A DNA stretch of 64,000 bases from an uncultured Staphylococcaceae bacterium (GTDB lineage: Bacteria > Bacillota_I > Bacilli_A > RFN20 > CAG-826). The translations under genes were made by a program, and so were the position numbers. The notes beneath the pieces are model-generated. The model was not told the DNA's origin. It saw only the letters and a program-made list of their open reading frames with translations, and ran no database searches. Shown piece after piece: positions 33,877 to 63,009 of the stretch (position 1 is its first letter; the number at the start of each line of letters is the position of its first letter). The stretch spans positions 16,997-80,996 of the forward strand of contig CAZJKC010000001.1 of the NCBI GenBank assembly GCA_964546565.1, written 5' to 3'.

Positions 33877-34198
33877 ATAAATCACCTCACTATAAATATA
33901 TGAAAGTTTAAAGCATATTATTTATATAATTTATTTATCATAATAACGTTTGAATATTTAATAAGATATTAACAAAAGCGTTTTCATCATAAACATCGAT
34001 TTAATTATGATAAAATATATTATGTGGAGGATAAAAGAAAAAAAGAAACTAAATCAAACTATAAAAATAGTTTAATTAAATAAAGATAACTTTTATCTTT
34101 TAGCAGTTTCTTTTTTAGGTATCTTTATATCATGCGATATAAACATTCTCATAAAATGTTTAAGAGGCTCGGCAAAGCCGTGTCCTATGGAGGAAATT

Positions 34199-36376
34199 AT
34201 GAAAAAAAACATCAGTAAAAAAATATTATTTATCAGTTTTTTAGCGCTTTTATTACCAGTAGGATGCGCAAAGAAAGGTAATAATAATCCTAATGGGGTC
34301 GATATTGCTAAAATACTACTAGCTAATGAAAGATTAAGTGACGATGATTTAAGTGGGAACATTTTTACTTCTGGAAAAAAAGCATTTAATCAAATAAAAA
34401 ATGCGGTAGAAAAATATAATCAAAAAGCAAAAGCCAACAATATAAAATACTCTTTTAATAAGAGCGGCAATAGATATACTTGGAATAATGCGCCAAGTTA
34501 TTCTAATTTCTTATCTTATTTCTATAGTTATTCCGCTAATATCGAGCACAATGCTACACGTGGATCATCATTGATAGATTTCACCAAATCATCAATTCAA
34601 ACTATTGACAAATGGATTAAAATAGATAGCAACAATGAAATGTTATTAACAGTTGATAAAGATAGTGAAACAATCATGTCGCGCTCTAAAAATCAATACG
34701 AAATATGTCGTCGTTATCAAAATGATTTAGGTCAAAACACATTTGAAATGTTTATCGCAAATAGTGAAACTAATTCTCAAAGCAGAATGACTTATATTCC
34801 AAATTTAAGATATGAATACACCTCTATTCAAGATGATGTATTACTTGTAATTATCGCCAATAAAGATAAAGGATATTGGGATATCATGTCCACCGATTAT
34901 AATTCTAGTCTTATCGATAAATCAATGACATTTTCCAACTTTGTCATGAAAGATGAAGCAATATATGAAACATCTTACTCCCTATCACAATACGATGATT
35001 TTATCGATGATTATTATGGACCGATAAAGTTAATTAGTTCAGACGGACAAAATGACTTATTAAGTATAGATAGCAACTACGTTTCTATATATACAACCGG
35101 TATAAACAATTTAGATTGTTTTTATATCGATGTCGAAGATAGCGAAATAGGTAATGCTTCAACTGTTGAAAATAGAGAAGATTACAAAATATTATATATC
35201 GGTGAAGGTGATGAAAAATCATATTTCACTGATGATAATAGTGAAGTTATCGCTAAATTCGCTACCGGAAAAGAACTAAAAAAAGGCGATATATTGTATC
35301 AAAATGACATCACCGTAGAAGGAACGTGCATTAATCCGATAGGTGATATCGACTTCTATGGAGAAATTACTTTGTCATTTGTCAACGATGAAATTGATTT
35401 TATTACTGATAGTCTTAAAAAACTTATGGATGACTATGATTTTACCTTTAAAGATAATTATGAAGTTATCAAAAATGCGTTAAGATTCGCCAAACAAGAT
35501 TCATTGGATTTCAGTGAATATTATCTATGGCAAGGAAGCCACATCAATAACTTTACCGATATCGATAAATCTATACAAATAGAAAAAGATTTGATTGAAA
35601 GCTTCGCTAATTTATATACAAATTACAAAGATAATCCCGTAATTAATAATAGTAATCAATGGAGTATTGACGATTCTTATAACTTTGCTAATTTAAACAT
35701 AATATCAAAAGGAGATATTTCTAATTCGGATTCCGAAATTAATATAAGCAATATTGTCGTCGAAATGGAAAACACATCACTTTTATCAAATAATACCGAC
35801 TATCAAATATGCTTTGCCTTTGCCAAAGAACAAGATAACAAGTATTCTAATTTATATACTTTAGACTTTGATAATCCTATTACCAAAGAATATGTTTACG
35901 ATAGCCTTTCAAATAGCAAAAAATTTGAATTATCGCAAAATGCAACAATAAGAATTCCTTTTTTAGAAGAAGGCTCCTATGTCTTAGTAGCGTATATAGC
36001 CACAGCAGATGATGGCATTAGAGTTTCTAATCCCATTAGCATTGGTGGATCTATTAAAGAAAACACAAAAATGGGCGAAGGATTGATTAATGTTTTAGCA
36101 AACGGAGAAGATAATAAAATATGTTTGACTTCCATTAAAACCGCGACAATAAACATTTATTTAGAGAACACTTATGATTATGAAGAATTATATTTGCTAT
36201 TGGAATCATACGCATATAAATATGGTACAACTTCAGGAGATAATATCGAAAAAGATAATAATTCTAATTGGGAAAGTATTGATAGCAACTCCGTAATTGA
36301 AGAAGGAACATATAGATTAAAATATTATAATAATAGTTTTGAAACCGATTCATACATTATAGCCTCTATTGTATAG
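34199..36376 (+). CDS. large surface lipoprotein (~725 aa), unknown function
   Basis: Signal peptide plus lipobox (LLPVGC). Asn/Asp/Ser-rich extracellular protein. Confidence 0.65.
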   Translation: MKKNISKKILFISFLALLLPVGCAKKGNNNPNGVDIAKILLANERLSDDDLSGNIFTSGKKAFNQIKNAVEKYNQKAKANNIKYSFNKSGNRYTWNNAPSYSNFLSYFYSYSANIEHNATRGSSLIDFTKSSIQTIDKWIKIDSNNEMLLTVDKDSETIMSRSKNQYEICRRYQNDLGQNTFEMFIANSETNSQSRMTYIPNLRYEYTSIQDDVLLVIIANKDKGYWDIMSTDYNSSLIDKSMTFSNFVMKDEAIYETSYSLSQYDDFIDDYYGPIKLISSDGQNDLLSIDSNYVSIYTTGINNLDCFYIDVEDSEIGNASTVENREDYKILYIGEGDEKSYFTDDNSEVIAKFATGKELKKGDILYQNDITVEGTCINPIGDIDFYGEITLSFVNDEIDFITDSLKKLMDDYDFTFKDNYEVIKNALRFAKQDSLDFSEYYLWQGSHINNFTDIDKSIQIEKDLIESFANLYTNYKDNPVINNSNQWSIDDSYNFANLNIISKGDISNSDSEINISNIVVEMENTSLLSNNTDYQICFAFAKEQDNKYSNLYTLDFDNPITKEYVYDSLSNSKKFELSQNATIRIPFLEEGSYVLVAYIATADDGIRVSNPISIGGSIKENTKMGEGLINVLANGEDNKICLTSIKTATINIYLENTYDYEELYLLLESYAYKYGTTSGDNIEKDNNSNWESIDSNSVIEEGTYRLKYYNNSFETDSYIIASIV

Positions 36377-36540
36377 CGTTATTAAGACTTTCAATGTTTT
36401 TATTACATAGTTCCATTTTTCTTATCTAATTTATTTTGCAATTATGAGCTTTATTTAATGCACTATTCTATAAATCACTAACAAAAAAAGATGTTATAAA
36501 TACCATATTTTCCCTTTTTTTGATATTTCTATCAACTAGT

Positions 36541-36568
36541 AAAAAAGCGCGATTTAATGCGCTTTTTT
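36541..36568. terminator. bidirectional rho-independent terminator between convergent surface-protein genes
   Basis: AAGCGC-gatttaat-GCGCTT hairpin flanked by A6 and T6. Confidence 0.75.
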
Positions 36569-36657
36569 CATTATTTTCTTACTCTTCTTTTAAATTATTC
36601 TTCCAAAGATAAAATTTTTTAAAATATCTTAATTCCCCTTTTTAAGTTTTATAAGAT

Positions 36658-38949
36658 TTATTCTTTACTATAGCCCCATACAACTGGAATGCGTTTATAA
36701 TCAGAATAATTTGAATTAATAACTTTTATATTCCATGAGAAATGCCATGTACTAGGTTGTACTTCCATTTCACAATATATCGTTAATGAATAACATAATT
36801 TAAAAGCTCCAAATCCTATATAAAAGACATTTTTATGTATATATACATTTTTTAAATGTGTACATTTTGAAAAAGCATAATCACAAATGATGTAAGTATT
36901 CTCATTTATATCAAATGACTCTATATCTGTATTTTTAATATCTACTAAACATAAATATGGATTATTATCACTTCCTATATAATAAGCATCATTGTCCTCA
37001 TTATATTGAAGATTGTTACAGTTATAAAAGACATTTTGCCCAAATGAAGTTAAGTTATTTGACAAAGTTACGTGTGTTAATGATTCACAAGCATTAAAAG
37101 CTCCATCACCTATATAAGTAACATTGTTAGGAATTGTAATTTCAGTTAATGATTCACATTTATAAAAAGACCTATTATAAATGTATCGTGTATTTTCATT
37201 AATAATACATGAAGTTATTTCTTGATCTTTGGATTCAATTAACCATAAAAATGGATTATCATCATTGCCTAAATAATAAGCATTATCATATTCAGTAAAG
37301 TTCAGTGATACGCAATCTATAAATACTCCATAACCTAAAGATGAAACACTAGAAGGAATAGTAATATTTGTTAAGGAAGTACAACCATCAAACGCTTGCA
37401 TTCCTATAGATATAACGCTATCGGGGATAATAATGCTTGTTAATGAACTACAATCATAAAATGCTCCTGCGAGAATAACGGATGTTTTTGGATTGATATT
37501 ACATGAAGTTATATTAGTACTTGCTTTTACCAAGCACACAAATGGATTATCATCATTGCCTAAATAAGAAGCGTTATCGTATTCATTATATTCAAGATTA
37601 TAACATTTACTAAAAGCATGAAGCCCTATAGAAGTAACATTACTAGAAATACTAATCTTTTTTAATTGTTCACAATCACTAAAAGCATAATCACCAATAG
37701 AAGTTACACTTTCGGGAAGAGAGATAGAAACGATATTTTTAAACCCATAGAATTGATATACACCAATATTTTTAATACCATCAGGAATTACAATTTCACT
37801 TAATTCTTGATATTTACCATCAACATTAAGATAAAAATGAGAAGCATACGCCATAGGATTTGATGTTTCATAAATAAGTCCATTAGGTCCGCTATCATAA
37901 TTACTGGTATAATAATAAGTATCACTAAAGCGAATGTTACACCAATCTTCTATAGTCCCATCATAATATACATTTTCTAAAGAATTACATATTTGAAATG
38001 CACGATCACCAATTGATTTAACGCTACTAGAAAAAGTAATATCAGTCAAATGCATACAACCTGCAAATGCACCAGAACCTAAAGATGAAACACTAGAAGG
38101 AATTTCAACACTTGTTAATGGACACCAATTGAATGCACCGCTACCAATTGAAGTAACACTATTAGGTATTTTAACACTTGCAATATTTGTATGTACAAAA
38201 GACCAATCACCAATAGCTGTTACTTTATATTTCTTTTTAAATGAAATCGTACTTGGAATGACAATATCAGTGTTTATATCTATATCATAGTACTTCATAT
38301 ATTTTGTGAGAACAAAACTATCATCTATCAATGCATAACAACAGCCATTCTTTTCAATTGTTAATAACCTTTCTTTATTAACATCCCAATAAAATGGTAA
38401 TGTTATAGAATTACCCGTGATAGTAATTTCTCCATCAATAATTCCCATTGACATAGATGCATCCCATCCATGTGACAATTCATAAGTATCTTTTCCACCT
38501 TCACAAAAAACGGTTAAAGAATTACAACACATAAAAGCAGATCCACCTATCGAAATATTTTTAGGAATAATTATTGTTTTAAGATTAATACACTTTAAAA
38601 ATGCTCCAGTCATAATTTGTTTAATGTTTGAATCATCCGAAAATGAAACACATTCAAGATTATCACATTCAGCAAATGCTTTTTTTCCAATAGCTTCTAC
38701 TTTTTTATTGTCGTGTATAGCGGGTATTTGAATTTTATTTATTGATTTATCCTTCATACCAGTAACAATATAGCTATCGCCCGTTTCCGATAAAGTGTAT
38801 TCTAATGCATTATCAGTTAAGCTTTCAATATTATTAGGTAGATCACTCATACTATAAATAATATTATTCGATTCATTTGGTGTACACGATGATAAAAAAG
38901 CACCAAAAAGCAAAAAAACAAAAACACCTTTTTTTATTATTTTCTTCAT
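36658..38949 (-). CDS. BspA-type leucine-rich-repeat (LRR_5) surface lipoprotein
   Basis: Lipobox LSSC. Many repeats of the ...SV/IxxIGxxAFxxCxxLxxIxIP... type. Confidence 0.8.
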   Translation of the reverse strand: MKKIIKKGVFVFLLFGAFLSSCTPNESNNIIYSMSDLPNNIESLTDNALEYTLSETGDSYIVTGMKDKSINKIQIPAIHDNKKVEAIGKKAFAECDNLECVSFSDDSNIKQIMTGAFLKCINLKTIIIPKNISIGGSAFMCCNSLTVFCEGGKDTYELSHGWDASMSMGIIDGEITITGNSITLPFYWDVNKERLLTIEKNGCCYALIDDSFVLTKYMKYYDIDINTDIVIPSTISFKKKYKVTAIGDWSFVHTNIASVKIPNSVTSIGSGAFNWCPLTSVEIPSSVSSLGSGAFAGCMHLTDITFSSSVKSIGDRAFQICNSLENVYYDGTIEDWCNIRFSDTYYYTSNYDSGPNGLIYETSNPMAYASHFYLNVDGKYQELSEIVIPDGIKNIGVYQFYGFKNIVSISLPESVTSIGDYAFSDCEQLKKISISSNVTSIGLHAFSKCYNLEYNEYDNASYLGNDDNPFVCLVKASTNITSCNINPKTSVILAGAFYDCSSLTSIIIPDSVISIGMQAFDGCTSLTNITIPSSVSSLGYGVFIDCVSLNFTEYDNAYYLGNDDNPFLWLIESKDQEITSCIINENTRYIYNRSFYKCESLTEITIPNNVTYIGDGAFNACESLTHVTLSNNLTSFGQNVFYNCNNLQYNEDNDAYYIGSDNNPYLCLVDIKNTDIESFDINENTYIICDYAFSKCTHLKNVYIHKNVFYIGFGAFKLCYSLTIYCEMEVQPSTWHFSWNIKVINSNYSDYKRIPVVWGYSKE

Positions 38950-38995
38950 AAAAAAATCCTCTCCTCAAAATTTTTTTAATGTTTTTACAATATAC

Positions 38996-39027
38996 ATTGT
39001 AACCCCCCCCCCCCCATGCTATGTCAA
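38996..39027 (-). promoter_or_regulatory. sigma-A-type promoter of the LRR gene with a G13 tract in the spacer
   Basis: Minus strand reads TTGACA (39027-39022), a 20-nt spacer containing G13 (39015-39003), then TACAAT (39001-38996). SD GGAGAGGA follows before the ATG at 38949. Confidence 0.7.
39003..39015. repeat. homopolymeric C13/G13 tract
   Basis: 13 consecutive C on the plus strand in a ~30% GC genome. Confidence 0.95.
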
Positions 39028-39091
39028 GCAATTTTGTAGTGTGTAGTGCTATTAATAAAGTAGACACTAAGGGGGTAAAAGTAGACACAAA

Positions 39092-39117
39092 AAAGAGGAT
39101 TTGGTAAAGTCCTCTTT
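39092..39117 (-). terminator. rho-independent terminator ending the DUF3990/DUF3791 operon
   Basis: AAAGAGGA/TCCTCTTT 8-bp stem. T-run on the minus strand. Confidence 0.6.
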
Positions 39118-39230
39118 GTTTTAAACTGGCATCATAATCCTGTCATATATATTGCCTTTTTATGATTTTTTTTCATATGTAATAGATTCTAATGCTATTA
39201 GGTTAGTAAAAGCATTATATCTGATTCTTT

Positions 39231-39437
39231 TTATGCGTTTATACGAGCTTCGATATATAAGTCAATATCATTGATAATATATTTATGTCCTGTGGTGTGT
39301 AATACATCGTAAAAAGTATCAAGATAATCAAATACTTTATACTTTTCAAATAGTTCTTGGGTCATAATGCCTGTCATACCTTTTTCGGCTTTATACATTT
39401 CAAAGCAAAAGGTTTTGAATTGTAATGTTTTACTCAT
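39231..39437 (-). CDS. DUF3791-family small protein
   Basis: 68 aa with a YDVLHTTGxxYIxxDIDxYI motif, matching recalled DUF3791 conservation. Last gene of the module. Confidence 0.55.
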   Translation of the reverse strand: MSKTLQFKTFCFEMYKAEKGMTGIMTQELFEKYKVFDYLDTFYDVLHTTGHKYIINDIDLYIEARINA

Positions 39438-39438
39438 A

Positions 39439-39672
39439 TTATACCTCCGGGAATTCTAATTTTCCCTTCATTTCTCTGTCGAATAATTCAACAATCATTT
39501 CCGAACTATATTGCCACACTTTTGTATCTTCTTTTTCAAGTGCCATATAAAGTTCTGATTTATGAAACAAGGACATAGCCTTATCTTCATCTAATCCATA
39601 TTTGTCCATTATCTTGCTGATTATATCAGAAGTCATCATAGCCATTAAAGTTGAAAACCTATCTTTATTCAT
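39439..39672 (-). CDS. DUF3791-like small helical protein
   Basis: 77 aa, 1-nt spacing to neighbours. Helical, typical companion of DUF3990. Confidence 0.5.
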   Translation of the reverse strand: MNKDRFSTLMAMMTSDIISKIMDKYGLDEDKAMSLFHKSELYMALEKEDTKVWQYSSEMIVELFDREMKGKLEFPEV

Positions 39673-40152
39673 TTATTTTTCCTCCACCCCAATAAACTTT
39701 AAATATGTTAAAGACTTTTCAGTATGAAATAACACTTGATTATAAAGTTCCTCAACCTTTAATCTCTTTAATGTTTCTTCCAAATCGTAAATGCCGATTT
39801 CATAAAGTCTAACAACTTCATAAACTCCATCATCGGCAACAGGGCCTATGACAATATCATATGTTTCTTGGCATTGTCCCTTGCGGTTTCCAGAAATAAA
39901 ATCCAACCACTCCTTATCCGCTTTATCAAAAAGAATAATCTTTAATTCAGATTCTGCTTTTTCAATATCGAAGTCATACATTGAAATATATCCGATATTT
40001 GTTTCTTTTCTGTTTTTTTGTTTTTCAGTCCATTTAATGGCTTGTTCTTCATTCATTGTAGTATAAAAGCCATAACCAAAATCTAAATATCTGTCACTAA
40101 CTCTAATTTCTGGCCTTTCCACAACAACAAGACTACCATGATATACTTTCAT
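39673..40152 (-). CDS. DUF3990-family protein; candidate ADP-ribosyltransferase-fold enzyme (H-Y-E type)
   Basis: Motifs VYHGS (H5), FGYGFYTT (Y30) and GVYEVV (E112) parallel the PARP/Tpt1 HGS, GxGxYFA and Y-E motifs. 4-nt overlap (ATGA) with the upstream gene. Confidence 0.55.
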   Translation of the reverse strand: MKVYHGSLVVVERPEIRVSDRYLDFGYGFYTTMNEEQAIKWTEKQKNRKETNIGYISMYDFDIEKAESELKIILFDKADKEWLDFISGNRKGQCQETYDIVIGPVADDGVYEVVRLYEIGIYDLEETLKRLKVEELYNQVLFHTEKSLTYLKFIGVEEK

Positions 40153-40454
40153 ACGATGGCCTCCATTTTCCTAATCTTTACTTGCTCTGCTTTTAATTCT
40201 TTGACAAGCTTCTCAACAACCTTTCGTCTTTCAAGCTGTTCCGCAATAAGAGCTATATTTTCTTCATTCATGCCGATATATTTTGCACAAACCTTTTTTC
40301 CATCTCTATATTTCAAATAATAGTATGTGTTAGCTTTTGTAATTTTAGGCGTTATCTTCCCTTTAGGTAAGAGCGATAATTCCTTTTCGTATCTCTCTAG
40401 CATATATTCATTTCGTTTTCTTTCATCCTCTAAAATAGAATAAATTAACTGCAT
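40149..40454 (-). CDS. hypothetical coiled-coil protein, first gene of the DUF3990 module
   Basis: SD GGTGAGGTG. TATAAT -10 at 40478-40473. Lys/Glu-rich. Confidence 0.45.
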   Translation of the reverse strand: MQLIYSILEDERKRNEYMLERYEKELSLLPKGKITPKITKANTYYYLKYRDGKKVCAKYIGMNEENIALIAEQLERRKVVEKLVKELKAEQVKIRKMEAIV

Positions 40455-40629
40455 TGTCATCACCTCACCATTATTATACTCTACATAAATGATTTTTTAA
40501 CTTTTTTTGTTGAACATTTTTGAAAATATATAGAAGTTTTGAAATCCCTATTAATAAGTTGTGACTCAAAATAAAAAAGGCTCTTTAATTTGCGTTTAAC
40601 ACACAAAAATCAAAGAAACCTTTAGCGTT

Positions 40630-47659: not shown

Positions 47660-48010
47660 TGAGTATTCGATCCTATAAGCCATGTTTTGTCTAGGATAAC
47701 TATTTATCTATGCATTAAGCATGTTGTTTTCCATTCTTTTTCTTTCCAACAACTTCCCCTACCAAATTTGGGTTTCTCGCTTGTGGGGTTTACCGCGTTC
47801 CACCCTATTGTTTCCAATAGGCTTCGTCACTGTGGCACCTTAGGAATATCAGCCATATCATACGACTTAGGCTTTTATTCGCCGTTATCTGCTCCCAGAT
47901 ACCTAGCGTTATTTGTTCCGCTAGCGCAAACACTACCATCATCACAGATGGTGCGAGCATGGACTTTCCTCTAATGATTTAACATCAGCAGTTATCTAGA
48001 TCGAATGTTT
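47660..48010 (-). ncRNA. rnpB: RNase P RNA, bacterial type B
   Basis: Minus strand reads GAGGAAAGTCCATGCTCGCAC ... GTGCCACAGTGACGAAGCC ... GGTGGAACGCGGTAAACCCC ... AGCGAGAAACCCAAATTTGGTAGGGGAA ... ACAAAACATGGCTTA, near-identical to B. subtilis rnpB conserved blocks. The P1 arms (ATTCGATC/GATCGAAT) pair. Local GC ~48%. Confidence 0.9.
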
Positions 48011-62806: not shown

Positions 62807-62847
62807 ATCCTTTCAACAAAACACTCAGGAACATAGTAACCAAAAGA

Positions 62848-62956
62848 AAAACTTCTTTCATCCAGACTTTACTGTCGCCACTAGAATTTCACTAGTTCAG
62901 CAATTAAGCTCGCGGGGTTTACCGCCGGTAAGGAATTACACCTTGTCCTGAAGTAA
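62848..62956 (-). promoter_or_regulatory. FMN riboswitch (RFN element)
   Basis: Minus strand reads CTTCAGGACAAGGTGTAATTCCTTACCGGCGGTAAACCCCGCGAGC ... GGCGACAGTAAAGTCTGGATGAAAGAAG, matching RFN conserved blocks (GUGAAAUUCC, ACCGGCGGUA, CCCGCGAGC, GACAGUGAAAGUCUGGAUG, AGAAG). P1 pairs as CUUC/GAAG. Confidence 0.85.
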
Positions 62957-63009
62957 TTTAATTATAAACTTTTTTTTATTATATTTAAACTTTTTATTTA
63001 CACTATACA

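Follow-up and report, generated by a model that had tools for sequence, protein, structure and literature searches.

A G13 tract in the candidate promoter spacer of a BspA-like lipoprotein gene: a predicted phase-variable locus in uncultured gut Bacilli

In Treponema pallidum, the gene TP0126, which encodes an OmpW homolog, carries a poly-G tract between its -35 and -10 elements, with the optimum at a 17-nt spacer, according to the account of this work that is given in a later paper (Giacani et al., 2015, via PMC7864442). For another gene of the same species, tprL, tracts of 7 to 11 G have been described within single isolates (PMC7864442). In Neisseria, the length of a poly-C promoter tract sets the transcription of opc, which encodes an outer-surface protein (PMC3960869). 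Surface lipoproteins of mycoplasmas are switched by repeat length as well, the repeat being poly-A for vlp of Mycoplasma hyorhinis and a TA spacer repeat for Vmm of Mycoplasma mycoides (PMC10502178). For the T-tract of Spy1336/R28 in Streptococcus pyogenes M28, 9T is off, 10T is on and 11T gives a higher level (PMC7098570). In addition, the BspA-like genes of Candidatus Mycoplasma girerdii phase-vary via simple repeats, as has been detected in metagenome reads (PMC5476646).

Then, could a spore-forming commensal of the gut control a surface protein in this way? We know of no report of promoter-spacer poly-G switching in this part of the Bacillota. In Neisseria meningitidis, a poly-G tract reportedly occupies the -35/-10 spacer of porA (van der Ende, 1995), and the promoter tracts of opc and porA give graded expression rather than a simple on/off response. 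Here, we analyze a locus of this layout in an uncultured bacterium. The stretch of DNA that was analyzed covers 64 kb of a 110-kb contig, has a G+C content of 31.6% and is termed the window throughout. It contains a run of 13 G placed between two promoter-like hexamers, upstream of a gene for a leucine-rich repeat (LRR) lipoprotein.

The LRR lipoprotein gene and its genomic setting

The gene order recA-rny-ymdB-spoVS-miaB-ylbF-cotE-mutS is Bacillus-like, and the closest named relatives, at 81-84% MutS identity, are recorded as 'uncultured Coprobacillus sp.', 'Bacillales bacterium UBA7581' and 'Coprobacillus sp. CAG:826'. CotE is encoded in the window, and relatives have SpoVS at the same locus; the host is regarded here as an uncultured low-G+C member of the Bacillota that belongs to the spore-forming gut Bacilli. 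The class B RNase P RNA (47671-48003, minus strand; 298.6 bits) and the FMN riboswitch (62846-62959, minus strand; 104.9 bits) are ordinary features, consistent with a Bacillota genome.

The LRR gene is located within a region that separates ylbF from cotE and spans about 6.7 kb (33932-40620). This region is regarded as a strain-specific insertion because ylbF directly adjoins cotE in four relatives, whose identity is about 90% at the nucleotide level or 84% for MutS. Since an IS3-like transposase fragment follows ylbF in another relative, the ylbF-cotE gap seems to be a hotspot for insertions. The island comprises the promoter, the LRR gene, the gene for a second putative lipoprotein, and a truncated DUF6788-DUF3990-DUF3791 module. 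The second product, a putative secreted protein or lipoprotein of 729 aa (34187-36376, plus strand; N-terminus ...LLLPVGC), is encoded convergently with the LRR gene, has no match among the Pfam and NCBIfam families and turned up in run SRR10277277 only.

The truncated module (DUF6788-DUF3990-77aa-DUF3791; 39143-40520, minus strand) shares about 90% identity with a module that is widespread in gut metagenomes. Elsewhere (contigs L082-L091), this module is located between the gene of a helicase-methylase of the Eco57I/SNF2 type, about 1900 aa long, and that of a large serine recombinase of 592 aa, and fragments of LRR_5 genes flank it in two of these contigs (L082 and L086). In the window the module is truncated and the serine recombinase is absent. 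It is probably the cargo of an integrative element. Because the homology to the module stops 116 nt before the -35 hexamer, the LRR gene together with its promoter and tract forms a separate piece of a mosaic island, one that is unique to this genome.

The LRR gene (36658-38949, minus strand) encodes 763 aa. Pfam LRR_5 matches the product in six stretches with E=1.5e-100 (332 bits versus a cut-off of 27.7), and its N-terminus reads MKKIIKKGVFVFLLFGAFLSS followed by C, that is, a signal peptide with the lipobox L-S-S-C at its end. The multiple LRR_5 repeats and the N-terminal lipoprotein signal peptide that define the BspA type are thus both present, in agreement with the original prediction of a BspA-like LRR lipoprotein downstream of the tract, and the product is a putative surface or host-interaction molecule. 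The nearest solved structures in the PDB are those of cell-surface LRR proteins, namely TpLRR of T. pallidum and PcpA of the pneumococcus, while among NCBIfam families there is a sub-threshold resemblance only, to the LRR adhesin HupY/LrrG. A homology search among 5.8 billion sequences returned no ortholog above 36% identity, no paralog is present in the window, and the two nearest LRR homologs whose promoters were inspected have no poly-G there.

A separate observation concerns the closest of the LRR homologs, P0003 (35% identity), whose gene is directly downstream of a gene for a tyrosine recombinase of 304 aa. A perfect palindrome, GTACATTGAATA-gaa-TATTCAATGTAC, is located between a TGTTATAAT promoter-like box and the ribosome-binding site of the P0003 gene (1403-1451 of contig L093), and all of three independent assemblies begin within it, 73 nt upstream of the ATG. 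The arrangement suggests recombinase-driven switching of LRR genes in the organism carrying P0003.

The poly-G tract and the candidate promoter

On the minus strand, the sequence upstream of the LRR gene reads TTGACA (39027-39022), TAGCAT, G13 (39015-39003), T and TACAAT (39001-38996), the tract being C13 on the plus strand, with ACAAAATTGCTTGACATAGCAT and TTACAATGTATATTGTAAAAAC as its flanks. Direct reading therefore confirms both the G13 tract in the minus-strand spacer and the two hexamers 20 nt apart that had been predicted. The -35 hexamer is a perfect consensus, and the -10 hexamer matches TATAAT at five of six positions; GGT precedes the latter, so that a G is found at -14 and the full TGn of an extended -10 is absent. 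The tract makes up 13 of the 20 bases of the spacer (39002-39021). Spacer length computed from the sequence equals the number of G plus 7, and the claim that the loss of three G would restore a spacing of 17 nt is thereby correct.

The tract is exceptional in its context. Among G/C runs of at least 7 nt, it is the only one in the window; the next-longest length is 6 (two runs), and the run-length spectrum falls steadily to 6 and then jumps to the single 13. The number of G/C runs of at least 13 nt expected in 64 kb is 1.1e-5 under a zeroth-order model and 2.4e-5 under a first-order model, which bears out the earlier statement that such a run is improbable by chance at this base composition. 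In sequence around mutS from 72 related genomes, 1.34 Mb in all, G/C runs reach 8 nt at most, and no run of at least 7 was found in about 75 kb from the closest relatives. The G13 tract is an outlier for the lineage as well as for the window. Because the relatives are without comparable tracts, there is no sign of a systematic, lineage-wide use of such switches.

The hexamers on both sides of the tract do not appear to be incidental. With both strands counted, 128 kb of sequence contain 35 copies of TTGACA and 61 of TACAAT, and an estimate from these counts puts the chance that both flank the tract in the orientation of the gene at about 1e-4 or less. Only two perfect TTGACA-N15-21-TAnAAT pairs exist in the window, the G13 locus being one of them. 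The candidate promoter is about 47 nt 5' of the LRR gene, and the tract is 54-66 nt 5' of the ATG (38949). A strong ribosome-binding site, GAGGAGAGGA (38957-38966, minus strand), lies 7-11 nt before the ATG. A standard promoter scan of the 280-nt intergenic region yielded no promoter with 16-18 nt spacing on the strand of the gene, and reading of the sequence gave no alternative -35 at 16-18 nt from the -10 of the G13 allele. Since the scan yields no other promoter between the upstream hairpin described below and the ATG, the split TTGACA/TACAAT pair is left as the sole good candidate promoter, and we infer that the LRR gene is transcribed from it. At the level of sequence consensus only, the homopolymer thus appears to lie in a core-promoter spacer.

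Two other roles of the tract were considered and rejected. A translational frameshift or N-terminal extension is ruled out by the location of the tract outside the open reading frame and by an in-frame TGA (38967-38965, minus strand), which is 18 nt before the ATG and overlaps the 5' end of the ribosome-binding site. A 71-aa open reading frame that spans the tract (38873-39088) was taken as spurious, because it lacks a ribosome-binding site and its start falls within the terminator tail. The region matches no Rfam family, and the fold of the leader RNA is unremarkable (z=-1.18).

A terminator-like hairpin with a T-run (39089-39120, minus strand) is located after the DUF3791 gene, which ends upstream of it at 39231. 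The hairpin was recognized as an inverted repeat (arms 39120-39107 and 39102-39089, 14 nt, 86% complementary, with a loop of 4 nt) and in the centroid fold, where the stem has 8 bp; its fold energy is statistically not distinctive (z=-0.24), and it is absent from the terminators listed by the terminator pattern scan. It is best described as a weak terminator-like element that may separate the upstream operon from the LRR gene. The lack of another promoter, this hairpin and the in-frame TGA together strengthen the promoter assignment.

Two 14-nt direct repeats, TT(T/A)GTGTCTACTTT, are also found in this region (39057-39091, minus strand). They are identical at 13 of 14 positions, have a period of exactly 21 nt and lie 30-69 nt 5' of the -35, the distal copy overlapping the T-tail of the hairpin. 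They may represent a candidate binding site for a regulator, such as an activator of the response-regulator type, or a two-copy family that arose by chance. It should also be noted that 9 nt of the 3' arm of the hairpin (AAATCCTCT on the plus strand; 39094-39102) are perfectly complementary to the region of the ribosome-binding site of the LRR gene at 38954-38962. The arm could mask this site in a read-through transcript, or the complementarity may merely reflect an anti-Shine-Dalgarno-like sequence.

Predicted switching, other alleles and alternative readings

For promoters of the sigma-70/sigma-A type, a spacer of 17 nt is optimal, spacers of 16 and 18 nt are usable, and those of 20 nt or more are nearly inactive. 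In the G13 allele, the tract holds TTGACA and TACAAT 20 nt apart, and because a spacer of this length misaligns the hexamers by about 3 bp, established promoter biology predicts little or no transcription. The allele would thus be OFF or low, and three slippage steps would separate it from the optimum. G10, with 17 nt, would be fully ON, while G9 and G11, with 16 and 18 nt, would be intermediate. G/C tracts of at least 8 nt are known to change length at a high rate via slipped-strand mispairing, and the G13 tract is well within the range, about 8 nt or more, in which the length of a G/C homopolymer is hypermutable. Slipped-strand mispairing in replication would add or remove G at high frequency, and since tracts of this size slip at high rates (tprL is an example), the G13 tract would almost certainly be heterogeneous in any population, each change in its length altering the spacing of the hexamers. 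With such frequent gain and loss of G in the spacer, a clonal population would be expected always to be mixed in its level of the surface protein, and the tract would act as a graded, reversible switch. MutS, which is encoded in this genome, together with MutL, which adjoins it in relatives, would moderate the slippage rates.

How much of this scheme can be accepted? We consider it fairly probable that the G13 run is a real, slippage-prone homopolymer in the spacer of a sigma-A-type core promoter, and that this promoter serves a BspA-like LRR lipoprotein gene gained by horizontal transfer. Phase variation at the locus is a plausible prediction that the structural layout fits, the anatomy of the tract and its non-randomness being observed, while the OFF state of G13, its mutability and its reversibility are what we infer. 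The fuller reading, in which this is a working contingency locus of spore-forming gut Bacilli that gives graded, reversible expression of a BspA-like adhesin from a deep-OFF G13 state needing several slippage steps, is put forward tentatively. One point against a switch is that G13 exceeds the optimum by 3 nt, a larger offset than in most characterized switches, which fits an expanded, dead promoter too.

Other alleles were looked for in public sequence collections. A Logan contig of run SRR10277277, the product of an independent assembly, shows 100% identity across 5314 nt and likewise has G13 with unique flanks, and the two assemblies that give G13 probably derive from this same run. Exact matches to the LRR protein and to the neighboring 725-aa protein were found on one Logan contig of SRR10277277 only, and an exact-protein look-up of the DUF3791 protein and RecA gave no record. 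The pattern TTGACATAGCAT-N2-30-TTACAATGTAT, which admits any tract length, had 0 matches in the genome contig and viral contig collections; its single match, in the metagenome contig collection, lacks a G tract and was rejected as unrelated and due to chance. The tract is G13 in both of the two assemblies, with no length polymorphism between them, and the locus is found in one run only. The Logan contig breaks off 49 nt 5' of the tract; this end was considered as a sign of heterogeneity and dismissed, as it fits neither the tract ± k nor a long repeat.

The same layout could result from decay, if the tract had expanded by mutation on a recent mosaic island, leaving the gene in effect silent and changes in tract length unselected. 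Such an origin agrees with the 20-nt spacer of G13, three steps off the optimum, with the strain-specific insertion site next to a truncated mobile-element module, and with the absence of an ortholog and of further contingency-type tracts in the relatives. However, the 763-aa open reading frame is intact and retains a good ribosome-binding site, a signal peptide and a lipobox, and hexamers at 6/6 and 5/6 of the consensus are unexpected under decay. Moreover, long G tracts tend to contract, and if this one does, ON lengths are still reachable. We regard decay as unlikely. We are more doubtful that the promoter is elsewhere, or that the gene is served by read-through from the DUF3990/DUF3791 operon, the hexamers then being incidental and the tract lying in an upstream or 5'-untranslated region, where its effect would be small or of another kind. 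The weakness of the upstream hairpin, which the terminator scan did not call, and the direct repeats at 21-nt spacing, which hint at activator-dependent control, would favor this; nevertheless, the intergenic region has no other promoter with 16-18 nt spacing, the joint chance of the flanking hexamers is very small, and the region shows no significant RNA fold.

An error of sequencing or assembly, in the tract itself or in its length, seems very improbable, even though short-read platforms are prone to error in homopolymer length, the genome is probably metagenome-assembled and the Logan contig ends close by. The Logan assembly uses a k-mer of 31, and the tract is shorter than this and so is spanned by single reads; the sequence is unique and coherent on both sides of the tract, and two different assemblies are concordant at 13. 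Poly-G errors of two-color chemistry are a feature of read ends and would not fall between a matched pair of promoter hexamers. There is hardly any probability that the promoter is natively of a long-spacer type, 19-20 nt, which a DNA-twisting regulator of the MerR type activates with no change in length. A 20-nt spacer is indeed typical of the target promoters of the MerR family, but dyad symmetry is absent from the spacer TAGCAT-G13-T, runs of G13 are not known to serve as operators, and none of the eight neighboring proteins scanned is encoded by a MerR-family gene. An invertible promoter was also considered and rejected, for the sole flanking inverted repeat is an AT-rich pair of 10 nt with one mismatch and the island has no recombinase.

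Comparison with known systems

If the switch reading is true, a commensal would use the same trick as pathogens, hiding a newly acquired surface protein, and the stochastic control of adhesins by promoter homopolymers would extend beyond Neisseria, Treponema and Mycoplasma to uncultured spore-forming gut commensals. Because the mechanism itself is textbook, the gain would be mainly one of taxonomic and ecological breadth. The locus would also offer a cheap and concrete test case, with one tract and one gene, for which read pile-ups are publicly available. In addition, it would call for caution in the annotation of metagenomes, where the consensus allele is possibly the silent state of a gene that is expressed by a minority of cells.

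Among the systems introduced above, that of Ca. M. girerdii concerns the same class of BspA-type LRR protein, which is under repeat-mediated phase variation there. However, its repeats are dinucleotides within the open reading frame that cause frameshifts, whereas the translational route is excluded here. The vlp and Vmm systems resemble the G13 locus in that surface lipoprotein genes of a low-G+C, Bacillota-affiliated lineage carry a promoter repeat, but the repeats are A or TA there and G here; vlp is moreover a multi-gene family with a tract per gene, while only one gene is concerned here and the window contains no paralog of it. For opc and porA of Neisseria, the likeness lies in a homopolymer in the core promoter of a surface-protein gene. 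These belong to Proteobacteria, and their characterized alleles deviate from the optimum by no more than about 2 nt, whereas the G13 allele exceeds it by 3 nt.

The closest analogue within the Bacillota proper is R28, where an intergenic homopolymer affects the transcript level of a surface adhesin. It differs in that its T-tract lies between divergent genes and alters the spacing of direct repeats, instead of being a G-tract in a -35/-10 spacer, and in having a polymorphism on record from about 2000 strains. TP0126 belongs to a spirochaete pathogen that has many poly-G tracts genome-wide, whereas the tract here is longer (13) and no others were seen; length variation and reporter effects, the latter in E. 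coli, have been shown experimentally for TP0126, while for the G13 locus both are predictions. In layout, however, the two are the same, each having a poly-G tract in the -35/-10 spacer of a surface-protein gene.
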